A stretch of DNA of 64,000 nt from a candidate division WOR-3 bacterium (GCA_965649265.1 CBFGKC010000010.1:50545-114544), one strand, 5' to 3'; counted from the first letter of the stretch, positions 40,502 to 59,921 are shown. Notes: generated from the sequence alone by a model not told the origin. A program made the numbers and translations.

Positions 40502-43500
40502 GTGGCTGCCCCATGGACGCAAAGAAAAGAGTCAAAACCTAAAGGGACGAATAAAAGGGTACTCGAGCACAAGGCAGCCCAAAAGCCGCACACGCCAAAG
40601 AACTCCACGAAAAGCAAATCCACAAAAACAGGGGGAAACCCGAGCAAGGCCGGATTAAAATTCGAGAGCCTGCTTGAAATCATAGCTTCGGGAGGCGATT
40701 ATCAGCGATTCGAATTGACCGCTCTTGCCGAAAACGAAAACTCGATAAAAAGAATATTGGAGGCCTTCCGCAGGCGCGAAACGAGGATCAAGGAAGAAGA
40801 AGAATCCAGAACAAGCAGGCTTGAAGACCTTAAAAGAAATTCCGAGCTTCTTTGCGAGCTTTGCGGGCACATCAACAACACTGTCTCATTAAAGATTCTC
40901 ATTGAGCGCTTTGCGAGAACTATATCCAGGAATCCTTATATTAACGCCGGGGTTTTATACCTTTTAAATTCTGACGGTGATTCCTTCAGCCCGGAGCAAA
41001 CGTTCGGCAAACAAAAAAAGGCCCTCAAGAACCAGATTCCGCTTTCTGCCACTGACAAAACCGCAAGGAAGATTTTATCTCAGGACGATTTTGTGAAAAC
41101 CAACCTCCTGGCCGGACCGGAAACCTGGGCGAAGAATTCATATAAGGAAATTGCCCTGCCCTTGAAAACGACGGAAGCAAAACTCGGGATTCTAGTGGCA
41201 ATAATCAATGAAGGTGACGAAAATACAATTGCCTTCCTCAAATCGGCCTCGAGCGAATTGGCTGTAGGGATAAAAAGAAAAAAGATCGACGAGGGGTTAA
41301 AGCTGAACCACGAGGAGCTTATAAAAAGGGAAGCCCTTTACAGCACGCTTGTGAACACGACAGAGGAAGCGATTATACTTTCTGACGCAAAGGAAAAAAT
41401 CCTGTACGCGAACCCTGCGGCATCAAGACTTTTAGGCTATTCCAAGGAAGAGTTGGAATCGCTTTATTCCTACGACCTCATTACCAAAGGCGAAAGGGAA
41501 GTGCTGAAAACAGAAAACACCCTGCGTGTTAAAGGTAAGGCGTCCCGTTACGAGTTGATATTAAGAAATAAGAATGGAAACCCGCGCAATATGCTCATCA
41601 CGGCGTCGCCGGTGTTCGATTCCAAAGGGGAATTCTACGCCTCGCTTGCGGCAATAACCGACATCACCGACATCAAACAAGCCCAGGCAAAACTCAAGGA
41701 GAGCGAAGAGAAACGGCGCATTCTCATGGACAGCATCCGTTCGCCGGTGCTGGCGCTTAAAGAAGACATGACAATCCTTTACTGTAACGAGTCTTTCCTG
41801 GAATTTTCAGCTAAAAGCCTCGAGGATCTTGAAGGAAAGAGTCTATTGAAAGTCTTCCCCCAGTTCAAGCGAACCGGATTTTACCCGGTCATCAAGGATG
41901 TTTTAAAAACAGGCAAAACACGTGAATCAGACGGTCAGTTAAACGATCGTTACCTTCATGCTCGCGTGTACAGAACTCCATGGGGAATCGTATCCATCGT
42001 AGAAGATATAACGGAAAAGAAATTGAAGGACGAAGCCTTGAGGGAAAGAGAAGAGCTTTACAGAACGCTGGTTGATACGGCTCGCGAAGGAATCATCCTC
42101 ACCGATCTCGAAGAAAAGATGCTCTATGTGAATCCGATGGCCGCCGAGATGATCGGGCACGCACCTTCGGATCTCATCGGCCGTTCAGTACTCGATTTTA
42201 TTACGCAGGATCAAAGGAAAACCATTGTCGAACAGACTAACAGGAGAACAAAGGGCGAGACCTCCCGCTACGAGACGACATTGATAAACAAGGGGGGCCC
42301 TCCCCGCAAGGTTCTCATCACCGGCGCCCCGATCATGGACTCTGATAAGAAAGTCTCTTCGACCATGGCCATAATCACCGATATCACTGAGATTTCGGCC
42401 ATTAATGAAATCACCCAGGCGATAATTTCAACCTTCGACGTAAAGCAAATCTACGGAGTAATTCACGATCAAATGAGGCGCCTCATTAACGCCAACAATT
42501 TCTACATCGCCCTTTACGACGAGGAAACCGACGAGATCAGCTTTCCTTATGCGTTTCAGGACGGGGCACTGCAGAACTGGGCACCTCGGCGGGGCGGCAA
42601 GGGAATGACCGAATACGTAATCCATACTGCCCAGCCTCAACTCTTTAAAGGCACGACCGAAAATGAAGCATCCAAGAGAGGGATCGAACATATAGGCAAA
42701 TCGTCACTCTCCTGGCTTGGAGTCCCGATGGTCGTTCACGGCCATGTTGTAGGAGTGATGACTGTTCAGTCGTTTGATCCGAAAGTAGTATACACGGAAA
42801 AACACACAAGCCTCATGCAGACCGTCGCCGCGCATGCCGCCCAGGCCGTGGAAAATGCACGCGCATACTCCGAACTCGAACGCAAACTGACGGAACTCTC
42901 CGTTTTCAACGAAATAGGCCGCGCACTCGCATCCACGCTTCAGTTAGACGAACTGATGGATGTACTTTTCAAGCAAGCATCAAGGATCATGGACACCGAA
43001 AGCTTCTATATGGCTCTTTACGACGAAAAGACGAATATAGTGGAATTCCCGATCTTTATCGTCGACAGGGGAAAGCACATAAAAGTGCAGCCAAAGAAGT
43101 TCGGCAACGGTTTGACGGAATACGTGATAACCACGAGACAACCCTTGTTCATAAAAGAAGACGTCGTCGAGAACTCGAAAAAGCTGGGAATTGACATGTA
43201 TGTCATTGAAAAGGACATGCCCCAGTGCTGGCTGGGTGTGCCCATGATCTCCCACAACAAGATCCTCGGCGTCATGGCCGTTCAAAGCACAAAAAGGGCA
43301 AACGCTTATGACGAAAACAACAAGCGCTTGCTTGAAGCAATAGCGAATCAGGCGGCAGGGGCCGTTGCCAACGCCCAGGCCTATTCGGAACTCGAGAACA
43401 AACTGACGGAGCTTTCCGTTTTCAAGGAAATCGGTCAGGCTCTCGGATCAACGCTGCGCCTTAACGAATTGCTTGAAGTCATCTATGCGCAGGTAACGCG

Positions 43501-46500
43501 CATCATGGAGAGCGACAGTTTTTATATATCCCTCTACGACGAGGGAGAAAACACCCTGAGGTTCCCCTTTTACATGGTTGAAGGAAAAAGAAAGGAAATA
43601 GCACCTCGTCCTTTCGGTAAAGGGCTGACCGAATACGTGATGGAGCTGCGTAAACCCGTCATATTCGGCGAAAACATGACCTCGAAAGAAGCCGAATTGG
43701 GAATCGCCGCAGTCAAGCACGGCAGGGACGACAACCCGCTATCCTGGTTCGGAGTGCCGATGATTTCTCACGATAAAGTCATCGGAGTTATCGGCATGCA
43801 GAGCAAAAAGCCGAACATCTACACCGAAGATCACAAGCGGATTTTGACGTCTATCGCAAACCAGGCCGCTCAAGCCGTCGAGAATGCCAGGGCTTATCTG
43901 GAGCTTGAAAATCGCCTCACGGAGCGTTCGGTGATGAATGAAATTTCAAGGGCCGTCGGCTCCACTCTCAAGTTCGATGAGCTTATAGAAGTTCTCTACA
44001 AACAGATTCGCCGGATTATGCAAACAGACAGCTTCTTCCTCGCTCTCCACAATTCCGGGAACCAGACTATAGAATTTCCATTCTTCATCGAAAAGGGGAT
44101 GCCCCTTGATGTTCCCTCAAGACCTTTTGGAAGTGGTTTGACCGAGTACGTTATAAAAACGGGGACCCCCCTTCTTCTCAGAAAGGAAAATTTCGACGCC
44201 GAATGCAAACGCCTTGGAATCAAGATGGTTCTTCACGGAAACCCGCCGCTTTCCTGGCTGGGTGTTCCCATGATCTCGCAAAACAAGGTCCTGGGGGTAT
44301 TGGCCGTCCAGAGCGTCGATAACGAATACTCGTATGACGAAAATCATAAACATTTGCTCTCTTCGATAGCCAATCAGGCCGCGGGTGCCGTGGACAACGC
44401 CAAAACTTATGAGGCTCTTGAGCACAGATTGACCGAGTTATCGGCTCTCAACGAAATCGGAAGGGCGCTGGGGTCCACCCTTAATATAGATAAGCTTATG
44501 AACGTGATCCACACTCAAACGAGCCGCATCATGGACAGTCAAAATCTATTCATCGCGCTTTATGATGAAACCTCGAAAGTTATCGAATTCCCGTTCTTCA
44601 TGGAAAACGGGCAAAAAATCAGAATGCCCTCAAGAAAACTCGGCGACGGGCTTACCGATTACGTGATCAAGACAAGCAATTCCCTGCTCATTAATGAAGA
44701 CGTGGTCGAAGAAACGAAGAATATGGGAATTGATATGATTGTTAAGGGAAAGTCACCAAAGTGCTGGCTGGGTGTTCCCATGATATCGCAAGACAGAGTA
44801 ACAGGCGTCATGTCGGTTCAGAATACGGACAAAGCGAGGATGTACGATGAAAACCACAAGCGCTTACTCGAATCCATAGCCAATCTGGCGGCAGGCGCGG
44901 TGGCAAATGCAAAGGCTTACGCGACTCTCGAAAGAAACCTGACGGAACTTTCCGTGTTCAACGAAATCGGGAGAACCCTGGCTTCGACCATACAACTCGA
45001 CGAGCTTCTTAAAGTCACTTATACACAGATAACGAGAATCATGGAAGGTGAAGCGTTTTACATTGCTCTCTACGACGAGAACACCGGCATGATTGAGTTT
45101 CCTATATGGATCGAGAACGGGGAATTCAGAAAAGTCCCCCCGCGTAAATTCGGCAAAGGGATGACCGAGTACGTCATAAGCAATCGCAGGTCTTTACTGT
45201 TCGGCGAAAACATGGAAGAGGAGGAGAAGAATCTGGGAATCGAAAGCTACAAATTCGGAGATCAATCTTACTCCTGGCTCGGCGCACCCATGATCTCGCA
45301 GGACAAGGTCCTCGGGATAATTGCAATTCAAAGCACCAAGAAATCTATTTACGACGAGGGGCATAAAAGACTGCTCGAGTCTATCGCCAACCAGGCAGCG
45401 GGCGCAGTTGCCAACGCAAGGGCATATGCCATGGTAGAACGCAGGGGTGATGAGCTCAGGGCACTTCTTAAGACGAGCACTGATCTCTCCTCAACACTCG
45501 ACGAAGTGGAGGTTGGACATATCATCGCCGAACGAGCGACCGATTTGATACCTTCCGACGGCTGTACTTTCTATCGCTTTGACAAGAACGCGAACAAGCT
45601 TATTCCGCTGGCTTCAAACGTAATCGAAGAATACGAACAAAGAATGTCTTTTTCAATACCGCTCGGCGAGGGTGTGACAGGAAGATCGGCTCAAGAACGC
45701 CAATCCATACTGGCCAACAACGTTCACAAGGACCCGAACGCCCCGCGCTTGCCCGGCACAAAGGAACTCCCTACATGCATACTCGCGGCGCCGCTCGTAG
45801 CCAGGGGAGAACTCTTAGGCGCAATGACCCTTTTGAGACTTTCCGAGAACGAATTCAGCGAACACGATCTGCAGCTATTTACCCTTTTTGCAAGACAAGC
45901 GGCTGATGCCTTCGCCAACAGCTTATTCATCGGCGAACTGAAGCTTCTCAATGACGATATGGAGCGCCGCAACGCCGAAAGACAGGTGCTTCTTGAAATA
46001 AGCGCCGCAGTCTCGGCCTCGCTGGATGAAAAGGAAGTCGCTCTCCTGATCTCGGAGAAGGCGTCGGACTTTCTGAAAGCCGACGGCTGCACTTATTACC
46101 AGTATGACGAGGAGGCTGGGGAGCTTGTTCCTCAAACGACGACCATGAATGAAGGCCAGCGACAAATACTCTCTCAACGGTTGAAACTCAACGAAGGAAT
46201 CACCGGGCGGGCAGCCGCGGAGAGAAAAGCACTTATGGCGAACAATGTGCATCTGGACCCTGAAGCGTGGAGAATTCCAAACACGAAAGAACTTCCCACA
46301 AACCTTCTTTCGATTCCCCTGACGACGCGTGGAGAACTTCTCGGTGTAATGACTCTCACTCGCTTCGGGAAGGAAACCTTCACGCAGCACGACCTGGAAC
46401 TTTTCAATCTCTTCGCAAGACAGGTCACCGATGCAATAGCCAACAGCCGCCTGTTCGGAAAACTCCGGCAGCTCAACAAAGATCTGCAGAACCGCTCGGA

Positions 46501-48577
46501 CGAACTGTCTGCACTCTTTAACACGAGCACCGAACTCTCCTCCGTTCTTGACGACGAGGAGGCGGGGAATCTAATTGCAGCAAGAGCGATGGACCTGGTT
46601 CCTGCCGATGGATGTACCTTTTATACATACGACCCGAAGGTTGAGCTTTTGGTGCCGGTTACAACTACGCTCGTCGAGGAATACGAGCAGAGGATGTCAT
46701 ACAAAGTACCGCTGGGCGAGGGAACAACCGGTAAAGCTGCCCTTGAACGCAGACCGATTATGGCGAACAATATACACCTGGACCCTGAAGCCTCGAGGGT
46801 TCCGGGTACCGAGGAGCTCCCGACTTGTCTCCTTGCAACACCGCTCGTAGCGAGAGGCGAGCTTGTCGGTGCAATGACCTTGATTCGCCTTTCGGATAAA
46901 GGTTTCGAGGAACACGATCTTCAGCTTTTCACGCTGTTCGGAAGGCAGGCCGCAGAAGTTTTCACAAACAGCAGGCTTTTCGGCCAGTTGAGGGAACTCA
47001 ACGAAAATCTCGAAAAAATCGTTACCGAACGCACCGGCGAACTGGAAAATGCCAGGCGTGACCTTGAAGCCGTTCACGAGGAGTACACAAAGAGGGTACG
47101 CACAAGACTCGCGACTATAGCACCTATAATGGAAAAGATTTCCATAGGTGATTTCAGCGAAAATATCCCCCTCCCGGAGATGGAAGACGAGTTTACGGAG
47201 CTTTTCGTCGGTCTCAATTTGATGATAGACGATTTAAGATTCATGTTTGAAGAAAACCGCAGGCGCAGCGAGGAGACTCGCAGGCGCAGCGAAGAGCTTT
47301 CTACTCTTCTGGATACCAGTACCGCCATCTCATCTTCTCTCTACGAAGACGAGGTTTCACAGCTTGTCGCCGAGAGGGCAATCTCGCTCATCAAGGCTGA
47401 CAGATGCAACGTTTACCGATTTGACCCTGAAACAAACGAACTGGTACCTCAAACCACAACCGAGATTGAGCAGCGCACGCAGATAATGGATTTCAGGGTT
47501 CCGCTCGGCTTCGGAGTGGTCGGTAAAGCCGCTTCCGAAAGAACACCCCAACTCGCCAACAACGTTCACAAGGACCCGGCGGCTCCGCGCATACCGGGTA
47601 CTAAAGAGAGACCTACGTGCATCATGGCTGCCCCCCTCATCGTACAAAGGGAACTTCTGGGTGTCATGGCTCTGTCGAGACTCAGCGAGGAATCGTTTTC
47701 CGAGCACGACATGGAACTATTCCTTTTGTTCTCCCGCCAAGTCGCAGAAACCACGGCAAACGCGAGATTGTTCGGCAAGCTCAAGGACCTTAACGAAAAT
47801 CTTGAAATAAAAGTGAATCTGCGCACGAAAGAGCTTGAGGAATCTAACAGAAAAACCGCAGCGTTCGCGAGGGAGCTTGAAGAAGTCATTTACGTGACGA
47901 GCCATGATCTCAAGACCCCTCTGCGTGCCATATCGGGATTCAGTCAATTCCTGTATGAAGACTATAAGGACAAGATAGGACCCGAAGGCAGGCTTTACCT
48001 CACAAGACTTATTGATGCCGCTAAAAGAATGGAAAGACTGCTGGATGATCTTTTGAACATATCCGCCATCACCCGTAAGGAGAGGGTGTTCGAGAACATT
48101 CCGGCAGGTGACCTAATTAAGGAAACGATAAAGATAATAAATCCGGATGAGGATTCTGAAATTATATACGATCCTGATTCGCTTCCTGAAGTATACTGCG
48201 ACAGAACCAAGCTAGTGGAGGTTTTTTACAATCTTATCTCCAACGGATTGAAATTCAACGACAAACCGCGAAAGAAAGTATCCATAAGTGCAAAGGACAC
48301 GGATGGTTTTTACGAATTTATAGTAGAAGATAACGGAATAGGTATCGAAAAGCGTCATTACGAGAGGATATTCAAAATATTTCAACGGTTGCACCTGCGC
48401 GAGGAGTACGAGGGAACAGGCGTTGGATTGTCAATGGTTAAAAGGGTATTGGAGGAACATAACGGCAGGATATGGGTTGAATCCCAGGTAGGAGTGGGTA
48501 CAATATTCCACTTCACTCTGCCTCATCACAAAGAAGATGATTTAGGCGAAACAGAAAATCTCGAAAGGAGCCCGTGA
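40502..48577 (+). CDS. Giant cytoplasmic sensor histidine kinase (3 PAS, ~11 GAF, HAMP-like, HisKA, HATPase)
   Basis: PAS motifs YANPAA/YCNESF/YVNPMA; six GxTEYV...WLGVPM GAFs; four DGCTFY/DRCNVY...GEL-type GAFs; SHDLKTPLR, DNGIGI, GTGVGL; exact start uncertain. Confidence 0.9.
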   Translation: MAAPWTQRKESKPKGTNKRVLEHKAAQKPHTPKNSTKSKSTKTGGNPSKAGLKFESLLEIIASGGDYQRFELTALAENENSIKRILEAFRRRETRIKEEEESRTSRLEDLKRNSELLCELCGHINNTVSLKILIERFARTISRNPYINAGVLYLLNSDGDSFSPEQTFGKQKKALKNQIPLSATDKTARKILSQDDFVKTNLLAGPETWAKNSYKEIALPLKTTEAKLGILVAIINEGDENTIAFLKSASSELAVGIKRKKIDEGLKLNHEELIKREALYSTLVNTTEEAIILSDAKEKILYANPAASRLLGYSKEELESLYSYDLITKGEREVLKTENTLRVKGKASRYELILRNKNGNPRNMLITASPVFDSKGEFYASLAAITDITDIKQAQAKLKESEEKRRILMDSIRSPVLALKEDMTILYCNESFLEFSAKSLEDLEGKSLLKVFPQFKRTGFYPVIKDVLKTGKTRESDGQLNDRYLHARVYRTPWGIVSIVEDITEKKLKDEALREREELYRTLVDTAREGIILTDLEEKMLYVNPMAAEMIGHAPSDLIGRSVLDFITQDQRKTIVEQTNRRTKGETSRYETTLINKGGPPRKVLITGAPIMDSDKKVSSTMAIITDITEISAINEITQAIISTFDVKQIYGVIHDQMRRLINANNFYIALYDEETDEISFPYAFQDGALQNWAPRRGGKGMTEYVIHTAQPQLFKGTTENEASKRGIEHIGKSSLSWLGVPMVVHGHVVGVMTVQSFDPKVVYTEKHTSLMQTVAAHAAQAVENARAYSELERKLTELSVFNEIGRALASTLQLDELMDVLFKQASRIMDTESFYMALYDEKTNIVEFPIFIVDRGKHIKVQPKKFGNGLTEYVITTRQPLFIKEDVVENSKKLGIDMYVIEKDMPQCWLGVPMISHNKILGVMAVQSTKRANAYDENNKRLLEAIANQAAGAVANAQAYSELENKLTELSVFKEIGQALGSTLRLNELLEVIYAQVTRIMESDSFYISLYDEGENTLRFPFYMVEGKRKEIAPRPFGKGLTEYVMELRKPVIFGENMTSKEAELGIAAVKHGRDDNPLSWFGVPMISHDKVIGVIGMQSKKPNIYTEDHKRILTSIANQAAQAVENARAYLELENRLTERSVMNEISRAVGSTLKFDELIEVLYKQIRRIMQTDSFFLALHNSGNQTIEFPFFIEKGMPLDVPSRPFGSGLTEYVIKTGTPLLLRKENFDAECKRLGIKMVLHGNPPLSWLGVPMISQNKVLGVLAVQSVDNEYSYDENHKHLLSSIANQAAGAVDNAKTYEALEHRLTELSALNEIGRALGSTLNIDKLMNVIHTQTSRIMDSQNLFIALYDETSKVIEFPFFMENGQKIRMPSRKLGDGLTDYVIKTSNSLLINEDVVEETKNMGIDMIVKGKSPKCWLGVPMISQDRVTGVMSVQNTDKARMYDENHKRLLESIANLAAGAVANAKAYATLERNLTELSVFNEIGRTLASTIQLDELLKVTYTQITRIMEGEAFYIALYDENTGMIEFPIWIENGEFRKVPPRKFGKGMTEYVISNRRSLLFGENMEEEEKNLGIESYKFGDQSYSWLGAPMISQDKVLGIIAIQSTKKSIYDEGHKRLLESIANQAAGAVANARAYAMVERRGDELRALLKTSTDLSSTLDEVEVGHIIAERATDLIPSDGCTFYRFDKNANKLIPLASNVIEEYEQRMSFSIPLGEGVTGRSAQERQSILANNVHKDPNAPRLPGTKELPTCILAAPLVARGELLGAMTLLRLSENEFSEHDLQLFTLFARQAADAFANSLFIGELKLLNDDMERRNAERQVLLEISAAVSASLDEKEVALLISEKASDFLKADGCTYYQYDEEAGELVPQTTTMNEGQRQILSQRLKLNEGITGRAAAERKALMANNVHLDPEAWRIPNTKELPTNLLSIPLTTRGELLGVMTLTRFGKETFTQHDLELFNLFARQVTDAIANSRLFGKLRQLNKDLQNRSDELSALFNTSTELSSVLDDEEAGNLIAARAMDLVPADGCTFYTYDPKVELLVPVTTTLVEEYEQRMSYKVPLGEGTTGKAALERRPIMANNIHLDPEASRVPGTEELPTCLLATPLVARGELVGAMTLIRLSDKGFEEHDLQLFTLFGRQAAEVFTNSRLFGQLRELNENLEKIVTERTGELENARRDLEAVHEEYTKRVRTRLATIAPIMEKISIGDFSENIPLPEMEDEFTELFVGLNLMIDDLRFMFEENRRRSEETRRRSEELSTLLDTSTAISSSLYEDEVSQLVAERAISLIKADRCNVYRFDPETNELVPQTTTEIEQRTQIMDFRVPLGFGVVGKAASERTPQLANNVHKDPAAPRIPGTKERPTCIMAAPLIVQRELLGVMALSRLSEESFSEHDMELFLLFSRQVAETTANARLFGKLKDLNENLEIKVNLRTKELEESNRKTAAFARELEEVIYVTSHDLKTPLRAISGFSQFLYEDYKDKIGPEGRLYLTRLIDAAKRMERLLDDLLNISAITRKERVFENIPAGDLIKETIKIINPDEDSEIIYDPDSLPEVYCDRTKLVEVFYNLISNGLKFNDKPRKKVSISAKDTDGFYEFIVEDNGIGIEKRHYERIFKIFQRLHLREEYEGTGVGLSMVKRVLEEHNGRIWVESQVGVGTIFHFTLPHHKEDDLGETENLERSP

Positions 48578-52516: not shown

Positions 52517-52589
52517 TGGGTCGTGCAGGATTCGAACCTGCGGCCACCGGATTAAAAATCAGGTGCTCTGCCAACTGAGCTAACGACCC
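52517..52589 (-). tRNA. tRNA-Lys(UUU) with one anticodon-stem mismatch; probable integration site
   Basis: GGGTCGT TA GCTC AGTTGGCA GAGC A CCTGA TTTTTAA TCCGG TGGCC GCAGG TTCGAAT CCTGC ACGACCC A; no encoded CCA. Confidence 0.85.
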
Positions 52590-52590
52590 G

Positions 52591-53781
52591 TCATGTAACT
52601 GCGTCACTTGTAAGATTGTCGAGAGAGTCTATTTCACTCTGCACCATTTTTGCACCAATTTTCTCAATAGCATCCTTGAGCGTCACGTCCGATATATGCG
52701 TGTACCTGTCGGCCATAGCGAGTGTCTTATGACCCATAAGGGCCTTTATCGTAAAGGCATTGAAGCCGCTTGAGCCAAGATAAGAGCCGAATGTATGCCT
52801 GAGGTCGTGAAAGTGGAAGTCCTTTATTCCTGCCCTGAAGCAGGCTCCTTCAAAGGCTCTTCGCCAGTTGCCGTATGCTGTACCATCGGGTTTTGAGAAT
52901 ACGTAATGCGAATGAGGTCTATCGTTATACAAGCCACTGAGTAGCCTTGCGAGTTCCCTTGCCATAGGGATAAATCTTGCCTCGTTATTCTTTGTCTCTC
53001 TTACCGCGATTATCGCTTTCTCAAAGTCCACGTTATCCCAGGTCAATTTTTGCAGCTCGCTTTTTCTCATTCCGGTATTCAGGGCAGTGAACACGACCGC
53101 GTAGAGCAAGGGATTATCGCTTAGTCTGCATTCGGCAAGCAGCCGTTCACGTTCGCTGTCGTTAAGCCACTTCATACGGCCAGAAGGCTCCTTGAATGAC
53201 TTCACCTTGCTTGCGGGGTTCGTCTCAATGAATCCCCATTCGAGAGCCTTGGAGAGCATATTCTTTAAGAGTGATAGTTCGCGGTTGACCGATGCGGGCT
53301 TTACCTGCTTAACACGGCCCTGCTTGTAACGCTCGACCACGAGGGGTGTGATCTCTCTTAGTTGAAGCTTTCCGAACGCTTTAGTGAGAATCCCCATTGT
53401 ATAGCGTTCTCTCTCAATCGTCGAAGCTGATTTATTATTCTTTGCGTATGGGGTGTATTCCTTCTCAAGCTCTGCGAACGTGTCTATCTGCTTTACTCCG
53501 GTCTTGTCTTGAGCGGTGCTTTTCTCAACAATCTTGCCAAGTTTTAAAAGAGCACGGGTTTTATCGATCTCTCCTGTGGAGACCATGTACCTTTTCCCGT
53601 TTAGCGTGAACCTTGCATACCAGCGTCCGTTTGAACGCTGAAATAACGTCACGTCAAGCGGTATTTTATCCCTATTGAGAGAGAAGTCAATTCTAAAGCG
53701 TCTGGGCCGTGCTCTTCTAACAGACTTGAGGACAGCTGAATCATCTGCCGTTTTGTTTAATCCGTCAGCTATCCTCACCAC
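52591..53781 (-). CDS. Tyrosine recombinase / phage-type integrase
   Basis: TGMRKSEL, TKN, FHDLRHTF, LMGHKT...RYTH; N-terminal arm-binding-like GRWYARF; stop abuts tRNA. Confidence 0.93.
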   Translation of the reverse strand: MVRIADGLNKTADDSAVLKSVRRARPRRFRIDFSLNRDKIPLDVTLFQRSNGRWYARFTLNGKRYMVSTGEIDKTRALLKLGKIVEKSTAQDKTGVKQIDTFAELEKEYTPYAKNNKSASTIERERYTMGILTKAFGKLQLREITPLVVERYKQGRVKQVKPASVNRELSLLKNMLSKALEWGFIETNPASKVKSFKEPSGRMKWLNDSERERLLAECRLSDNPLLYAVVFTALNTGMRKSELQKLTWDNVDFEKAIIAVRETKNNEARFIPMARELARLLSGLYNDRPHSHYVFSKPDGTAYGNWRRAFEGACFRAGIKDFHFHDLRHTFGSYLGSSGFNAFTIKALMGHKTLAMADRYTHISDVTLKDAIEKIGAKMVQSEIDSLDNLTSDAVT

Positions 53782-54284: not shown

Positions 54285-54616
54285 AGATCAACCTCCAAGT
54301 TCAAGGATTAACAAGATCGCCAACAATCCCTACTCTTTTAGTAGTAAGCCTGAGTAGAGCTTATCGCCAAGGCTCTAAGCCCTGAATTTACCCTTCCTGG
54401 GGAATTGTCTCACCAGGAAGGTGATCTCGTTTCGCTCTTGGTGCGTGGGATTAATCCCTTTCAGTTCGGTACAATACCCCGATAAGAATATTATCCACCG
54501 AAATCAAATCTTGTCAAATTTTTTTTGGCTCAATTGAGCTTGTAACATCCTGACAAAAAGTTACATGCTCAAAACTAGCAAACCATTGTAAATATTAGGT
54601 GAATACCATTTTTCAG

Positions 54617-55119
54617 GCCATAACAAAATATCCGCAAGCCTCAAAAATGATGAAGCAATTTACATCAAAACTGCAATTTGACCGACTGTGATTACCACCT
54701 ACAACCTTTAGCAATGTCTATTTCAAGATGTAATAGAAAGTCCATACACAACCAAAAAGGTTACATGGCTAAGAGCTGAAAACCAGCATAAACATTAACT
54801 TAATATCCGGTTTTGTGTAAAACAAAACGTCAGCAAAGCCCCAAAAACACCGAAGCAAATTACATAATAATTGCAGTATGGCTTTACCTGTCTACTGCAA
54901 AAATCCTTGACGAGCTTATACGTGTATCTATCCCCAGACCATAACGAATTAGCCGTAAGCCCTAAAACCGATGAAGCGATTTACATCAAAAGTGCAGTAT
55001 AACCTTACAGGGGACGCCTGGTAGAAACGGCCACCTTCCTTCACGAATGCCCTCTTCGAGCCATAACAAAATAGCCGTATGCCCCAAAAAAGTTACATCA
55101 AATTACATAATAATTACAT
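54617..55119 (+). repeat. Four degenerate ~59-bp direct repeats (54617, 54817, 54938, 55060)
   Basis: Consensus gCCATAACAAAATAgCCGyAAGCCycAAAAA..aTGAAGCAAtTTACATcAaAAnTGCA; periods 200, 121, 122 bp. Confidence 0.8.
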
Positions 55120-55151
55120 ACCCCCTACCCTCTTGATGCGGCTCTCCTTGG

Positions 55152-55180
55152 TTGACAAGCACTTGGTGTGGGGATATAGT
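55152..55180 (+). promoter_or_regulatory. Sigma70-like promoter of the R-M gene
   Basis: TTGACA-N17-TATAGT, followed by GGAGG SD before ATG 55209. Confidence 0.65.
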
Positions 55181-55208
55181 TTGTCATGCTTTACGGAGGA
55201 GTTGAGTA

Positions 55209-58200
55209 ATGCCTGACCAAGAAACCCAGCGCGAAACCCAGATCAAGGAGTGGGCAAAAAGGCTCCAGGTAAAGATTGACGGGGTTTTGCCAAAGAAGCC
55301 AAACGAGGCCGAGTTCCGCAAGGTCGTTGACCGCGAACTCGACGACTTTTGCGCTGAGATAGGTTCCCCCGTTACACATGCCGAGTACACCCTTGCGACC
55401 GGCAAGGCCGATGCAACCTTTAACCGTTTGATTGTCGAATACGAGTCCCCTGGCAGGCTAAAAAGAAGCTGGGATAAGGCAACCGCACACGCAGTCCAGC
55501 AGGTCAAGGACTACATGGAAGGCGTGGCCCAGAAGGAGGGCAGGGAGCTTGAGCGTCTGGCAGGTGTGGCTTTTGACGGTTACTACATCATATTCGTAAG
55601 ACAGATAAACGGCAAGTGGGCAATGGAACCTCCTATGGAGTGTAACCAGCATACGCTTGAAAGGCTTTTCCTTTGGCTCTCCGGCTTGACTTCAGGTATA
55701 GCGCTTACCGCTGAAAACCTCAATAAAGATTTCTCGCTTGAGCAGGAACGAACAAAGACCATACTGGACGCCCTTTACACGGCTCTTCAGGACGCGCTCT
55801 CAAAGTCCGGCGCAGACGGCATGGTATCAAAGCTTTTCGCTCAGTGGAAGCTCTTCTTCTCGGAGTCAATCGAATACTCCGAGGCGTTCGGAGGCCGTAA
55901 GCTTGACCCATTGAAAAAGTGGGCAGCCAAGGCCGGAATCGAGATTACATCTGCCCAGGACGCTGAGCATTTCTTTTTCGCCCTTCACACCTACTTCGCG
56001 CTTCTCGTCAAATTCCTTGCCTGGCTTGCGCTTTCGAAGCACTTCGCAGTAAAACTTGGCAAGCCTTCATTTAGCATACTCTCAACCCTTGAAGGCGAGG
56101 CGCTTAAGGCCGAACTCAAGAAGATGGAGGAGGGAGGCATATTTCACGCATACGGCATAATGAACCTTCTTGAGGGCGACTTTTTCGAGTGGTATCTTTA
56201 CGCGTGGAATGACAAGATCGAGGACGCGGCGCGTGAACTCTTAAAGCGGCTTGACCAGTACGATCCCACAACGTTGAGCGAAATACCTGAGGAGACCCGC
56301 GACCTTTTCAAGAAGCTTTACCACTACTTGCTGCCCCGTGCCGTCCGTCACAACCTTGGTGAATACTACACGCCCGACTGGCTCGCTCAAAGGCTTCTCA
56401 ACCAGGTTGATAACACGTTCTTTAATGCTGAAGCCCAGGACACGAACGCCGAGCTTCGGCGCAAGCTTTTGGAGACTCGCTGGCTTGACCCTGCCTGCGG
56501 TTCAGGAACCTTCCTCGTTTTGATTATTTCAAGGATAGTTGCGGCAGGCAAACGTATGATGATAAACGAGACCGAACTGCTTGAGGGGATTCTTTCAAAC
56601 GTGCAGGGCATTGACCTTAATCCTCTTGCCGTCTTGACCGCAAGGGTCAACTACCTTTTAGCGCTTGGCGATATGGTCGAGAACCGGAAAGACGTTATAA
56701 ATCTCCCCGTTTATCTTGCCGATTCCGTGCGCGGCCCGGAGCTTGGCAAGGATTTGGAAACCGCCGCAACTTACAAGTTCCCTACTGCAATAGGCCCTTT
56801 ATACGTGCCGATCATCCTGTGCAATCCTGAGCATTTTGACCGCTTTTGCGATATCCTTGAGGAAAGCGTGGATGCTGAGGTAATGACTCCCAGCTTTATG
56901 AAACGGGTGGAGAAGGAGTTGGATATTACGCCCTCGGATTGGGACACAAGGGCAGTGTTAAAGCTCAGAGAGCTTTACGAGCAACTGCTTGTGTTCCATA
57001 AAGCGGGTATGAACGGCCTGTGGGCAAGGCTTCTCAAGAACAACTTTGCGCCAATGGCAATGGGGCAGTTTGACAACGTTGTGGGTAACCCTCCCTGGGT
57101 CAACTGGGAGAGCCTGCCCGATGAATACCGCAAGTCAATAAAGCCGATCTGGGAGCGCTACGGTCTTTTTCCGCATGGAGGCATGGATACGATTCTCGGT
57201 AAGGGCAAGAAGGACATCTCAATGCTTATGACTTATGTAGTAATTGACAAGCTTCTCAAGCAAGACGGCAAACTTGGGTTTGTCATAACGCAGTCCGTCC
57301 TAAAGACCTCAGGCGCTGCCCAGGGTTTCAGGAGGTTCAGCATCCCTGAGGGTAAAAACGAAATTCCGCTCAGGGTTGTTTACGTTGATGATATGGTCAA
57401 TCTCAATCCCTTTGAAGGAGCAACCAATAGAACCGCCGTGGTTGTGATCCAAAAAGGTAAGCGAACGAGTTACCCCGTATCCTACACCCTGTGGCGAAAG
57501 ATTCGCGGCCAACGCTTTAGCTATGACAATACACTTGAGGAAGTCCAGAAGGCTACAAAACGTCTTGAACTCTACGCCGAGCCGGTATCTGATGAGGACT
57601 GCACCTCGGCATGGCTCACTGCCCGCAAAACTGCACTCAAGGCTGTGAGGAAGATATTGGGGAAATCCGACTATAGGGGCTATGAGGGAGTTAACACAGG
57701 TGGAGCTAATGGGGTCTATTGGGTTGACGTAGTTGACACACGACCCGATGGATTGCTGGTTGTAAAGAACATTACCGAGGGTGTAAAAACAAAAGTCAAA
57801 GAAGTTACGGAAGCAGTCGAGCCTGATTTGCTTTACCCGCTTCTTAGGGGCAGGGATATTAAACGTTGGAAATCAGAACCCTCGGCACATATCCTTATGG
57901 TGCAAGACCCAGTAAAGAGGAGAGGTATCGATGAAGAGAAGATGCAGAATGATTTTCCCAAAACCCACGCTTACCTCAAAAAGTTTGAGAAGGTTCTAAA
58001 GGCGCGTAGTTCAAGGGGAATCTCCGATATGATTAAAAAAGGCGCCCCTTTTTATACGATGTTTGCTGTCGGCAATTATACCTTTGCGCCCTGGAAAGTT
58101 GTTTGGAGGGAGGTTTCACACACCTTGGATGCCGCAGTCGCAGAGGTGCATAATGACAAGTCTACCTTACCGGATCACACCTTAATTATGGTGGACTGCC

Positions 58201-58550
58201 AGACTAAACAAGAAACCCACTACCTTTGCGCTTGTCTCAATTCTTCACCCTCAAGAATGGCAGTGCAAGCTTACATTGTCCTTCACCCTGACCCGCACAT
58301 CCTTGAAAATATCCGCATACCAAAATTTGACCCGAAGGATAAAACCCACAGGCACTTAGCCGAGCTTAGTGAGGAAGCTCACAAGGCCGCGTCCAAGGAC
58401 GATCAAAAGGTCTTATCAAAGATTGAAGCCGATATTGACACCGAGGCCGCAACGCTCTGGGGTCTTGACGATAAGGAGCTTGCCGAAATAAAAAAAGCCC
58501 TTAAGGAACTGGGCAGCAGCCAGGAACCGGAAGAGGAAGAAGAGAATTAA
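55209..58550 (+). CDS. Fused restriction-modification enzyme (type IIG/Eco57I-like, N6-adenine methyltransferase)
   Basis: GEYYTPDWLA, LDPACGSG, GIDLNPLA, VVGNPPW; N-terminal nuclease-like AD...IVEYE...Q..DY; C-terminal TRD-like region. Confidence 0.88.
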   Translation: MPDQETQRETQIKEWAKRLQVKIDGVLPKKPNEAEFRKVVDRELDDFCAEIGSPVTHAEYTLATGKADATFNRLIVEYESPGRLKRSWDKATAHAVQQVKDYMEGVAQKEGRELERLAGVAFDGYYIIFVRQINGKWAMEPPMECNQHTLERLFLWLSGLTSGIALTAENLNKDFSLEQERTKTILDALYTALQDALSKSGADGMVSKLFAQWKLFFSESIEYSEAFGGRKLDPLKKWAAKAGIEITSAQDAEHFFFALHTYFALLVKFLAWLALSKHFAVKLGKPSFSILSTLEGEALKAELKKMEEGGIFHAYGIMNLLEGDFFEWYLYAWNDKIEDAARELLKRLDQYDPTTLSEIPEETRDLFKKLYHYLLPRAVRHNLGEYYTPDWLAQRLLNQVDNTFFNAEAQDTNAELRRKLLETRWLDPACGSGTFLVLIISRIVAAGKRMMINETELLEGILSNVQGIDLNPLAVLTARVNYLLALGDMVENRKDVINLPVYLADSVRGPELGKDLETAATYKFPTAIGPLYVPIILCNPEHFDRFCDILEESVDAEVMTPSFMKRVEKELDITPSDWDTRAVLKLRELYEQLLVFHKAGMNGLWARLLKNNFAPMAMGQFDNVVGNPPWVNWESLPDEYRKSIKPIWERYGLFPHGGMDTILGKGKKDISMLMTYVVIDKLLKQDGKLGFVITQSVLKTSGAAQGFRRFSIPEGKNEIPLRVVYVDDMVNLNPFEGATNRTAVVVIQKGKRTSYPVSYTLWRKIRGQRFSYDNTLEEVQKATKRLELYAEPVSDEDCTSAWLTARKTALKAVRKILGKSDYRGYEGVNTGGANGVYWVDVVDTRPDGLLVVKNITEGVKTKVKEVTEAVEPDLLYPLLRGRDIKRWKSEPSAHILMVQDPVKRRGIDEEKMQNDFPKTHAYLKKFEKVLKARSSRGISDMIKKGAPFYTMFAVGNYTFAPWKVVWREVSHTLDAAVAEVHNDKSTLPDHTLIMVDCQTKQETHYLCACLNSSPSRMAVQAYIVLHPDPHILENIRIPKFDPKDKTHRHLAELSEEAHKAASKDDQKVLSKIEADIDTEAATLWGLDDKELAEIKKALKELGSSQEPEEEEEN

Positions 58551-58688: not shown

Positions 58689-59921
58689 CTATCTCAACAC
58701 AACAGCCTTGCGAGTGATGGTTGTTTGGGATGTCTCAAGCTTGATGAAGTAGACACCCGAAGATAGAGCCGAGTTCATTGTCAGTCTGCCTGAGCCTATA
58801 ACCGTATGGGATTCGATCCTGCGGCCGGAAGGATCGTAGAGACTAATCATCCCCTGCTCGCTATTAGGAATTGAGTAAGAAACAAGGAAGGAGGAGGGGG
58901 TGTTACGGGTGATATCAAGCTGGAGGACAGAGGTGGAGGGGGTCTCACCAATGCCGCTGTACTCCCTGGTCAAAATATCGTCCTCGTCGCACTCGTCCGG
59001 GGACATGCCTGCAAGCCCGCCCGTGACAACGGTCAGCGTGTATGTGCCGCCGCCCGAACCACCGGTATAATCCTTGAAGCTGACCTCGGTGGAGTCGTCC
59101 GATGCAAGACTCGGTACGATCACCGTGTCCGCATAGGGCGTTGAGCCCTCTATTGTGGCTATCACCTTGACGTCAGTCTGATCCTCGCGGCCGTTGTTCC
59201 AGACCACAGCACGGGGATGCGTAAGGTCGCCCGATATGCGCGTGAGACCGATGTCGTAATCGGCCCAGCCGGTCAGGCGTATTGCGTCAAAAAACGCCTT
59301 CTGACCTCGCCAGCCGTTATCATCGTAACCAGATGCAAAAAGCACTAAGGAATCTAATTCCAAATCTAAAGGTAAAAGCTTGGTCTCAGCAATATCCTTT
59401 TTGAGGTCTCTAATGCACATATACCATTCACCCTGTTTGTATGCCGTATCACTGAAATACTTTGTGTAGATATCATCGGTGGGTGGAATTGCGTTCGGGT
59501 TAAGCCAACCATAAAGAACTATTATTCTTCTTTGATTTGCTGGATTAATAAATCTAAGAGTCATGGCGTAGTTTCCCATCAAGTTCTTAAGAGTATCTCT
59601 CGAGACAAACATATGCCTAAATTCAATGGTATCCAAGTCTTCAAGCTTTTTGTGATTCGTTAGAACCTCGGATACTTCTCCTGTTACACTTAAACTTGAA
59701 GAGAATGGTTTTTTTCGCGTGTCGATCGATGCGCAGTAGGAACCTACTACCGCGCTGTCAGAATCATGACTGTTCAAGTACACCGAATCAACAGTGGCAG
59801 GAATGGTTCGATACCCCCACACGCTGCTTCCTTGCTCGAACCCCGCATCTTTGATAAGGTTCACCTTCTCAAGTGCCAGGAGCATTACCGGTATCAATGT
59901 GATGTAAAGTAATCTTCTCAC
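58689..59921 (-). CDS. Secreted protein with CARDB-like and T9SS-like C-terminal domains
   Basis: GGAGG SD; signal peptide; VWNNG...VSF...GTYTLTV; LYDPSGRRI...SSGVYFIKL. Confidence 0.75.
   Translation of the reverse strand: MRRLLYITLIPVMLLALEKVNLIKDAGFEQGSSVWGYRTIPATVDSVYLNSHDSDSAVVGSYCASIDTRKKPFSSSLSVTGEVSEVLTNHKKLEDLDTIEFRHMFVSRDTLKNLMGNYAMTLRFINPANQRRIIVLYGWLNPNAIPPTDDIYTKYFSDTAYKQGEWYMCIRDLKKDIAETKLLPLDLELDSLVLFASGYDDNGWRGQKAFFDAIRLTGWADYDIGLTRISGDLTHPRAVVWNNGREDQTDVKVIATIEGSTPYADTVIVPSLASDDSTEVSFKDYTGGSGGGTYTLTVVTGGLAGMSPDECDEDDILTREYSGIGETPSTSVLQLDITRNTPSSFLVSYSIPNSEQGMISLYDPSGRRIESHTVIGSGRLTMNSALSSGVYFIKLETSQTTITRKAVVLR

Follow-up and report, generated by a model that had tools for sequence, protein, structure and literature searches.

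The analysis of a 64,000-nt stretch of DNA from a candidate division WOR-3 bacterium (hereafter the window) reveals a 925-nt non-coding stretch (54285-55208), flanked by a Rep-like gene on one side and a Type IIG restriction-modification (R-M) gene on the other, that carries an array of units related to the ends of a Mu-like prophage in the same genome. Judged from sequence comparison, the best-supported reading is that the array consists of a module that lies subterminally in transposable-phage ends and is retained on an integrase/Rep/R-M island. We further give roughly an even chance to the array being a phage-end mimic, that is, a set of putative binding sites for transposable-phage proteins kept on this tRNA-Lys/Type IIG R-M island.

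The four direct repeats proposed in a first-pass annotation of this DNA were recovered as units of ~60 nt by a repeat search of the window, with start-to-start spacings of 200, 121, and 122 nt. The repeats appeared as a 52-nt family, with copies 65-75% identical to the reference copy, and a 70-nt family of three copies (67-80%). Placement with R1, a sequence-only covariance model built from alignment A2, located the units on the + strand at 54618-54679 (w1, 62.6 bits), 54817-54879 (w2), 54939-55000 (w3), and 55061-55123 (w4), and pairwise identity over the 59 columns of the unit core ranged from 64 to 83% inside the array. Units w1 and w3 are closest to each other (83%), w2 is closest to the left-end unit of the resident prophage on contig C3 (93%, against 64-72% to its array neighbours), and w4 is closest to the solitary units of a congener, G001 (81-83%). 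Because w1 to w4 have different nearest relatives, the array is not a simple local tandem duplication. Two partial units on the + strand consist of the second half alone: partial unit a (54545-54598, repeat family D7) contains AAAAAGTTACATG and aligns by position with the unit of locus L039 (alignment A3), and partial unit b (54745-54800) contains the 15-mer AAAAAGGTTACATGG, which the right end of the C3 prophage also has in inverted form.

The stretches between the units are mostly unrelated. One of ten pairwise comparisons gave a relationship, between the pre-w1 and w1-w2 stretches (local score 33 versus 16.2 +/- 2.3, reached by 0/200 shuffles); both resemble partial units and each holds AAAAAG(G)TTACATG. 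The two ~60-nt spacers that had been called unrelated are so by this measure as well, since their score of 15 versus 11.6 +/- 2.0 was equalled by 17/200 shuffles. The second motif reported earlier, AAAAAG(G)TTACAT, is present at 54555 and 54754, and a third copy lies at 55087. Over the 586 nt of the array, TTACAT occurs eight times on the + strand (54561, 54660, 54761, 54860, 54981, 55093, 55103, and 55114, at successive distances of 99, 101, 99, 121, 112, 10, and 11 nt) and once on the - strand, a strong enrichment over the genome mean of 0.34 per kb and over 2000 shuffles (mean 0.5, maximum 4). The three copies described as helically phased, at 55093, 55103, and 55114, do lie at 10-11-nt steps inside w4. 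The inverse ATGTAAC noted at 52593 beside the tRNA gene is indeed present; as it coincides with the final codons and stop of the integrase, it is probably a chance match. The array thus looks like neither a product of chance nor a simple decayed tandem duplication. Contigs of related strains (about 84-94% identical) in metagenome runs X1 and X2 carry the array in short pieces, none spanning all of it, and two such variants have replaced inter-unit stretches.

This repeat-spacer appearance, with unrelated spacers and inter-unit stretches that are replaced in related strains, would suit a small non-coding RNA array or a CRISPR-like repeat-spacer array, an explanation that we nevertheless consider very unlikely indeed. 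RNAalifold predicts 0 consensus pairs in 10 copies, and Rfam gave no match beyond the tRNA at the gathering threshold and only one chance-level match at E <= 1, so that the processed non-coding RNA array suggested at first finds no support in consensus pairing or in family matches of the units. The repeats are only 64-83% identical and their periods of 200, 121, and 122 nt irregular, which argues against a CRISPR-like array, as does the lack of cas domains in the 10 neighbouring ORFs scanned, where the earlier statement that no cas genes are present therefore holds. A phage origin of the spacers, raised as a check in the first-pass annotation, was not borne out: blastn of the array, spacers included, gave no match among 50,697 phage records. 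Two further candidates were set aside. Small ORFs of 29-43 aa cross the units, and their sequences are not conserved as coding repeats would be; an integron attC array was rejected on the absence of consensus pairing in 10 copies and on the position of the integrase, which abuts a tRNA gene as in genomic islands.

The 48,410-bp element at C3:73408-121817 (loci L009, L049, and L050) is a Mu-like transposable prophage that encodes a DDE-type transposase (PHROG 310, 1e-20; weak rve match) 23-29% identical to the transposases of Stenotrophomonas and Pseudomonas transposable phages, together with Mu Gam (Pfam, 5e-16), a DnaC/IstB-like ATPase, a LexA-like repressor, and portal, MuF, TerL, endolysin, major head, sheath, tape-measure, and baseplate proteins. 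The transposase gene lies at L049:2452-4074, and a 193-aa candidate small terminase is encoded at L009:12875-13456. The termini of the element are inverted, read TG...CA, agree at 16/18 positions, and carry ATGTAA at positions 12 and 45 from each terminus; at <=2 mismatches, the terminal 18-mer is found in the genome only at these two ends. In G001 the two flanks of the element adjoin each other (C64:18612/18695), and in G006 only 287 nt separate them, so the element is a discrete insertion in the window genome (G000). These flanks share CAA only (ACAA counting the terminal A) rather than a clean 5-bp duplication, and comparison with the G001 empty site gave no exact target duplication, as the intergenic DNA is too diverged to align. 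The left arm ends in accessory genes for a Dam methylase and an NB-ARC STAND protein, and the right arm in genes for a nuclease, an LRR protein, Vsr, Dcm, and an HATPase. The layout is unusual in that the early genes, those for Gam, the transposase, and the ATPase, share one arm with portal, MuF, and TerL, while head and tail genes diverge from the LexA-like repressor on the other arm and defence-type accessory genes stand at both ends.

A profile of the four array copies has one other match in the 2.74-Mb genome, at C3:73433-73498 (E 6e-10), which is preceded by a half copy and sits directly inside the left terminus of this prophage; identity between w2 and C3:73442-73499 is 92-93%. Each prophage terminus has two sites, and the inner one, 33 nt from the terminal site, corresponds to the second half of the unit (..TTACAT..TGCA). 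As this TTACAT half keeps the same register and offset at both termini, it is a probable end-binding site of the transposase. The A-rich first half is found at the left terminus only and is a candidate accessory or packaging (pac-type) site, on the assumption, by analogy with Mu, that the pac site lies in this end of the C3 prophage. The second motif likewise belongs to the phage. In the form AAAAG(G)TTACAT it occurs eight times in the genome, against about 1.35 copies expected by chance: three times in the array, twice inverted no more than 130 nt from the right terminus of the prophage, and three times elsewhere. The combination of unit, run of C, and terminal site was found again in G001 C59 (on the orthologous TerL/Dam arm), G001 C79, G003, and G006; the region upstream of the G003 and G006 ends gave only two weak protein matches to the C3 prophage. 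In the window, a run of C follows w4 on its 3' side, as in prophage ends, but no terminal site comes after it. Neither terminal 18-mer lies within 3 mismatches in or beside the array, the sole such match on its contig being about 14 kb off with 3 mismatches. Lacking a terminal site, the array is not itself a usable transposon end. With the C3 transposase as query, no transposase homologue was found in G001, G006, G008, or G009, all of which have units, so unit and transposase do not always go together, or in these four genomes the gene has diverged too far or is missing from the assembly.

The array occupies the central non-coding region of a small island beside a tRNA gene. The tRNA-Lys(UUU) gene (52517-52589, - strand; ARAGORN, Rfam 70.4 bits) abuts with its 5' end the stop codon of a tyrosine integrase gene (P0002, 52591-53781, - strand; Pfam Phage_integrase 5e-32, PHROG 1 integrase 6e-74), which ends one base away and probably begins further downstream than the GTG listed for it. 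Next comes P0001 (53787-54284, - strand), a 165-aa HUH Rep-like protein with the motifs FATLTF, HHLHYLI, and YVLKK read in its translation and a weak match to Pfam REP_ORF2-G2P (E 0.0024, under the curated cut-off). The earlier placement of the array between the Rep-facing and R-M-facing promoters was upheld: a sigma-70-like promoter (TTGACA-16-GATAAT, 54490-54517, - strand; a consensus match only) faces the Rep-integrase genes, and another with a leader (TTGACA-17-TATAGT, 55152-55180, + strand; promoter scan) faces the R-M gene (55209-58550, + strand), the island's cargo, which encodes a Type IIG enzyme (PADLOC REase_MTase_IIG, E reported as 0; Pfam Eco57I, N6_Mtase, and MmeI_Mtase). The island thus joins an integrase to a replication initiator of its own, as satellites do, the initiator being assigned from HUH motifs and a weak Pfam match. 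No phage genes flank the array by Pfam search of the neighbouring ORFs, and no attL/attR pair was found; the sole repeat of tRNA sequence, an 18-nt match at 58809 (E 0.03), lies inside a coding region and was rejected as an att site and regarded as chance. An inverted phage terminus bounding the island on the tRNA side was also rejected, the match there being limited to the hexamer ATGTAA.

Some observations on this island type stand apart from the array. Integration into tRNA genes usually occurs at the 3' end, and the integrases here are on the opposite side: in 6/9 loci scanned, a tRNA gene follows the integrase gene of this family at once, and the integrase stop codon touches or overlaps its 5' end; the tRNAs concerned are Lys, Thr, Arg, and Ala (window 52517-52593; L038, L042, L043, L104, L105, and L103). 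Homologues of P0001 stand beside integrases in five other genomes of the family and at a second place in G000 (C1:62639-64405, L038), where the Rep is 32% identical, the neighbouring tRNA is tRNA-Thr, and a 1-kb non-coding region upstream has no units. Four protein relatives of P0001 were found in metagenomes (58-90% identical), and a search of metagenome contigs for P0001-related loci matched 106 pattern stretches and confirmed none. Elsewhere in the window, 40502-48577 on the + strand holds a 2691-aa ORF followed by response-regulator and histidine-kinase genes.

Direct repeats beside a replication initiator gene are typical of iterons, and the array, which lies 270-840 nt upstream of the Rep gene and has a counterpart unit at the same place on the closest homologous island, could accordingly be taken for iterons, an origin, or arm-type sites that belong to the HUH Rep or the tyrosine integrase encoded on the island. 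We regard this as improbable. Rep iterons are unlikely because G001 has five units but no P0001 homologue at E <= 0.001; units also make up an end of the C3 prophage, which lacks homologues of both Rep and Int, and 5/6 Rep-homologue loci have neither a unit nor a comparable array. Arm-type sites are disfavoured by the G001 integrase homologues on C125 and C47, beside which R1 gave no clear unit (best E 0.011, filters off). A separate hairpin is a better candidate for the site of Rep: a 12-bp stem at 54392-54421 (inverted pair I7, unstranded), about 108 nt upstream of the Rep start, has a counterpart of related sequence in L039 (1995-2026), about 114 nt upstream of the Rep homologue. Lying about 110 nt upstream of both Rep genes, it may be a cis site of Rep itself, either a nick site/origin or an operator. 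The initial idea of a protein- or recombinase-binding array serving the Rep/integrase pair is therefore retained in its first part, as the array has the look of a binding array, and not in its second, in view of the prophage end without Rep or Int homologues.

The homologous island, G008:C29, belongs to another genus and encodes an integrase 52% and a Rep 50% identical to the window proteins. Integrase, Rep, and hairpin are followed there by one unit (R1 E 4.8e-5), a run of C, and a terminal site that recurs identically at the G003 and G006 ends. The orientation is that of the window, and the distance between unit and Rep start is about 268 nt, compared with 271-335 nt in the window. About 420 nt past the terminal site stands a promoter with a leader homologous to those of the window's R-M gene (window 55148-55212 against L039:2663-2727, about 70% identity counted by eye). 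The gene behind it differs from the R-M gene and is apparently frameshifted. A contig of run X1 departs from the window sequence at the R-M start codon (55211) and continues with sequence resembling the G008 gene. A conserved promoter and leader with different genes from the start codon on suggests, at the level of sequence, cargo exchange exactly at the coding start. The shared place and orientation of the unit on two islands mark the module as a conserved internal part of the island, with variable cargo behind the promoter. Upstream of the Rep homologues no array like that of the window was found, and R1 (filters off) placed a unit at one of the six loci, G008:C29, and at none of the other five.

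The island units also follow the phage ends of their own genus. Island units of genus g1 are of the TTACAT type, and those of genus g3 are of the TTGCAT/GTGCA type and are accompanied by the g3 terminal site. The second half of the unit is 60% identical between genera versus 71-78% within a genus, and the first half 76% between genera. In each of the two genera, the sequences of the island units therefore match the local phage-end variant.

The unit is also found elsewhere in the family. R1 located five single units in G001 and, among 132 genomes of the class, single copies in 4/6 genomes of the sister genus g3, while outside the family one weak match among the 132 was taken for chance. Units are 85-93% identical between G000 and G001, compared with about 71% for orthologous HtrA/EamA DNA. 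Some copies stand alone beside ordinary host genes that have no island or prophage near them, in front of porX-like, rpmA, and cysS-like genes and behind EamA, and several are at breaks of synteny. In G001 (C106:9543-9685, C100:8262-8402, C122:2532-2622, and C117:28939-28992), the solitary units share a 70-nt upstream part with a short palindrome and an outward TTGACA, which occurs once without the unit; these copies are at breaks of synteny with G000. Two of them (L012 and L015) form a 142-nt element with identical limits; a MITE was rejected, as no terminal inverted repeats or duplication were read by eye at these shared limits. The two-block unit pattern gave 48 matches in viral contigs that are ascribed to chance (0/48 at R1 E <= 0.1), and a stricter unit pattern gave 0 matches in the genome contig collection and 0 in the metagenome contig collection. 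The terminal two-site pattern likewise gave 0 in the genome contig collection, though it is present in G003 and G001. The bacterial family is evidently not visible there, and such blanks say little. A separate, G+C-rich dispersed repeat of ~36 nt (L011:1386-1421 on G001 C79) is 92-97% identical between the two species and occurs at at least four places in G000, including C4, C5, and C11.

The dispersed copies raise the possibility that the unit is an operator or promoter-upstream module through which a regulator of the host or of a mobile element acts on the two divergent promoters of the island, scattered before other genes as well. Consistent with this, same-orientation units stand 32-50 nt upstream of a -35 box at four places (porX-like, rpmA, cysS-like, and R-M; the sigma-70-like promoters other than the two of the window were identified by eye), the array separates two divergent promoters, and the TTACAT copies in w4 follow one another at steps of 10-11 nt. 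In G000, however, the promoters of the porX and rpmA orthologues have no unit, so there is no conserved regulon, and further copies are directed into the 3' ends of genes that converge. We accordingly hold this explanation to be unlikely, if slightly less so than iterons.

A more serious rival, which we rate as unlikely but worth weighing, is an inert relic: a Mu-like phage would have inserted between Rep and R-M of an ancestral island, and deletions would have left functionless subterminal DNA that was later duplicated or patched by recombination with resident prophages. Mu-like prophages are lost through deletion rather than precise excision, which counts for this explanation, as do the complete unit and terminal site of G008:C29, resembling a truncated prophage end, the divergence of the window copies (64-83% identical), and the replacements inside the array in related strains. 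Against it, the module is recognisable at the same place on islands whose proteins are only 50-52% identical, a distance at which non-coding DNA free of constraint would not be expected to align, and units are 85-93% identical between species in which orthologous coding DNA is about 71% identical. The unit has sharp common boundaries in many contexts, and the identical 142-nt limits of the two G001 solitary copies are not expected from independent deletions. A single internal deletion, moreover, would have retained the terminal site, which the array lacks.

Returning to the phage-end mimic, a mechanism can be outlined from the architecture of the sites. The four full and two partial ~58-nt modules, homologous to subterminal sequence in the ends of a Mu-like phage lineage resident in the family, would offer a genus-specific TTACAT half to the phage transposase and an A-rich half, conserved across genera, to an accessory or packaging protein. 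Such end-type sites would provide a cis-acting link between island and phage, hinting that the island exploits or resists the phage. The island might be replicated by its own Rep and then packaged by the phage, it might sense the phage through these sites, or transposase bound there could discourage phage insertion nearby, in the manner of Mu cis-immunity. Mu cis-immunity is described as acting via end-bound transposase and Mu packaging as beginning from one end (PMC2837660). Several observations weigh against the mimic: the array has no terminal site, the transposase query drew a blank in four unit-bearing genomes, the C3 flanks show no clean 5-bp duplication, the G003 and G006 ends are tied to the prophage by two weak protein matches, the solitary units by host genes are not explained by a satellite or mimic reading, and the module is present on only two islands, five more distant Rep/Int loci having none.

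A more specific form of this proposal, which we advance only tentatively and consider rather unlikely, is that the island is a minimal satellite or hitch-hiker of Mu-like phages, in which copies of the helper's end region, comprising a packaging or accessory site specific to one end and a transposase site, would be updated to the local phage, phage terminase or transposase would act on Rep-replicated DNA, and the sites would also shield the island from insertion. We know of no satellite of transposable phages, and such an island would be the first. A literature search at the level of titles and abstract openings found no transposable-phage satellite and no island with foreign phage-end sites.

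If the units work, a chromosomal island would carry a copy of transposable-phage ends for parasitism (packaging), protection (target immunity), or sensing, which would extend satellite-helper biology to transposable phages and show defence cargo being placed and exchanged next to phage-end sequences, with a Type IIG R-M system on the island and STAND, Dam, Dcm/Vsr, and HATPase genes at the prophage ends. If the array is a relic, it serves as a caution that a regular repeat-spacer pattern by a Rep gene can derive from prophage ends rather than from iterons or CRISPR-like systems.

Among known systems, those nearest to the array are Mu-type ends, satellites with helper cis sites, transposition target immunity, and intergenic mosaic arrays. 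The ends of Mu and other transposable phages hold several transposase-binding sites inside TG...CA termini; the C3 prophage likewise has inverted TG...CA termini, with two ATGTAA-containing sites per end at matching offsets. The window array differs in having 4-6 sites in one orientation, about 100-120 nt apart, on an integrase/Rep/R-M island and without a terminal site or surrounding phage genes, and its A-rich half is found at one prophage end only. With the iterons of rolling-circle and theta replicons, the likeness is that of direct repeats upstream of an initiator gene, but the units are 58 nt long and widely spaced rather than short and contiguous, and they are present without Rep (G001) and at prophage termini. 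Satellites that carry cis sites of their helper include P4, PICI, and minimal PICMI-type islands. The present island resembles them as a small tRNA-adjacent island with an integrase, a replication initiator, and a copy of the cis region of a co-resident phage; unlike them, it has a putative helper that is transposable, a Type IIG R-M cargo, and no capsid-remodelling genes. We know of no natural island that keeps foreign end sites for immunity. In target immunity, transposition into DNA near transposase-binding sites is disfavoured even when these sites are placed outside a transposon (PMC2837660). By analogy with Mu, Tn7, and Tn3, end-type sites arrayed on an island would be expected to behave alike, whereas the known cases involve ends that belong to the element itself or engineered mini-elements. 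The repeat arrays of Neisseria, with their Correia elements, consist of short intergenic units with unrelated stretches between them that also occur singly elsewhere and near promoters (PMC3898611). The window array is similar to such intergenic mosaic arrays, including BIMEs, in its conserved units, unrelated intervening stretches, and solitary copies near promoters; it differs in its very low copy number of 5-6 per genome, in having no terminal inverted repeats, target duplications, or palindromic structure, and in being traceable to a phage end.
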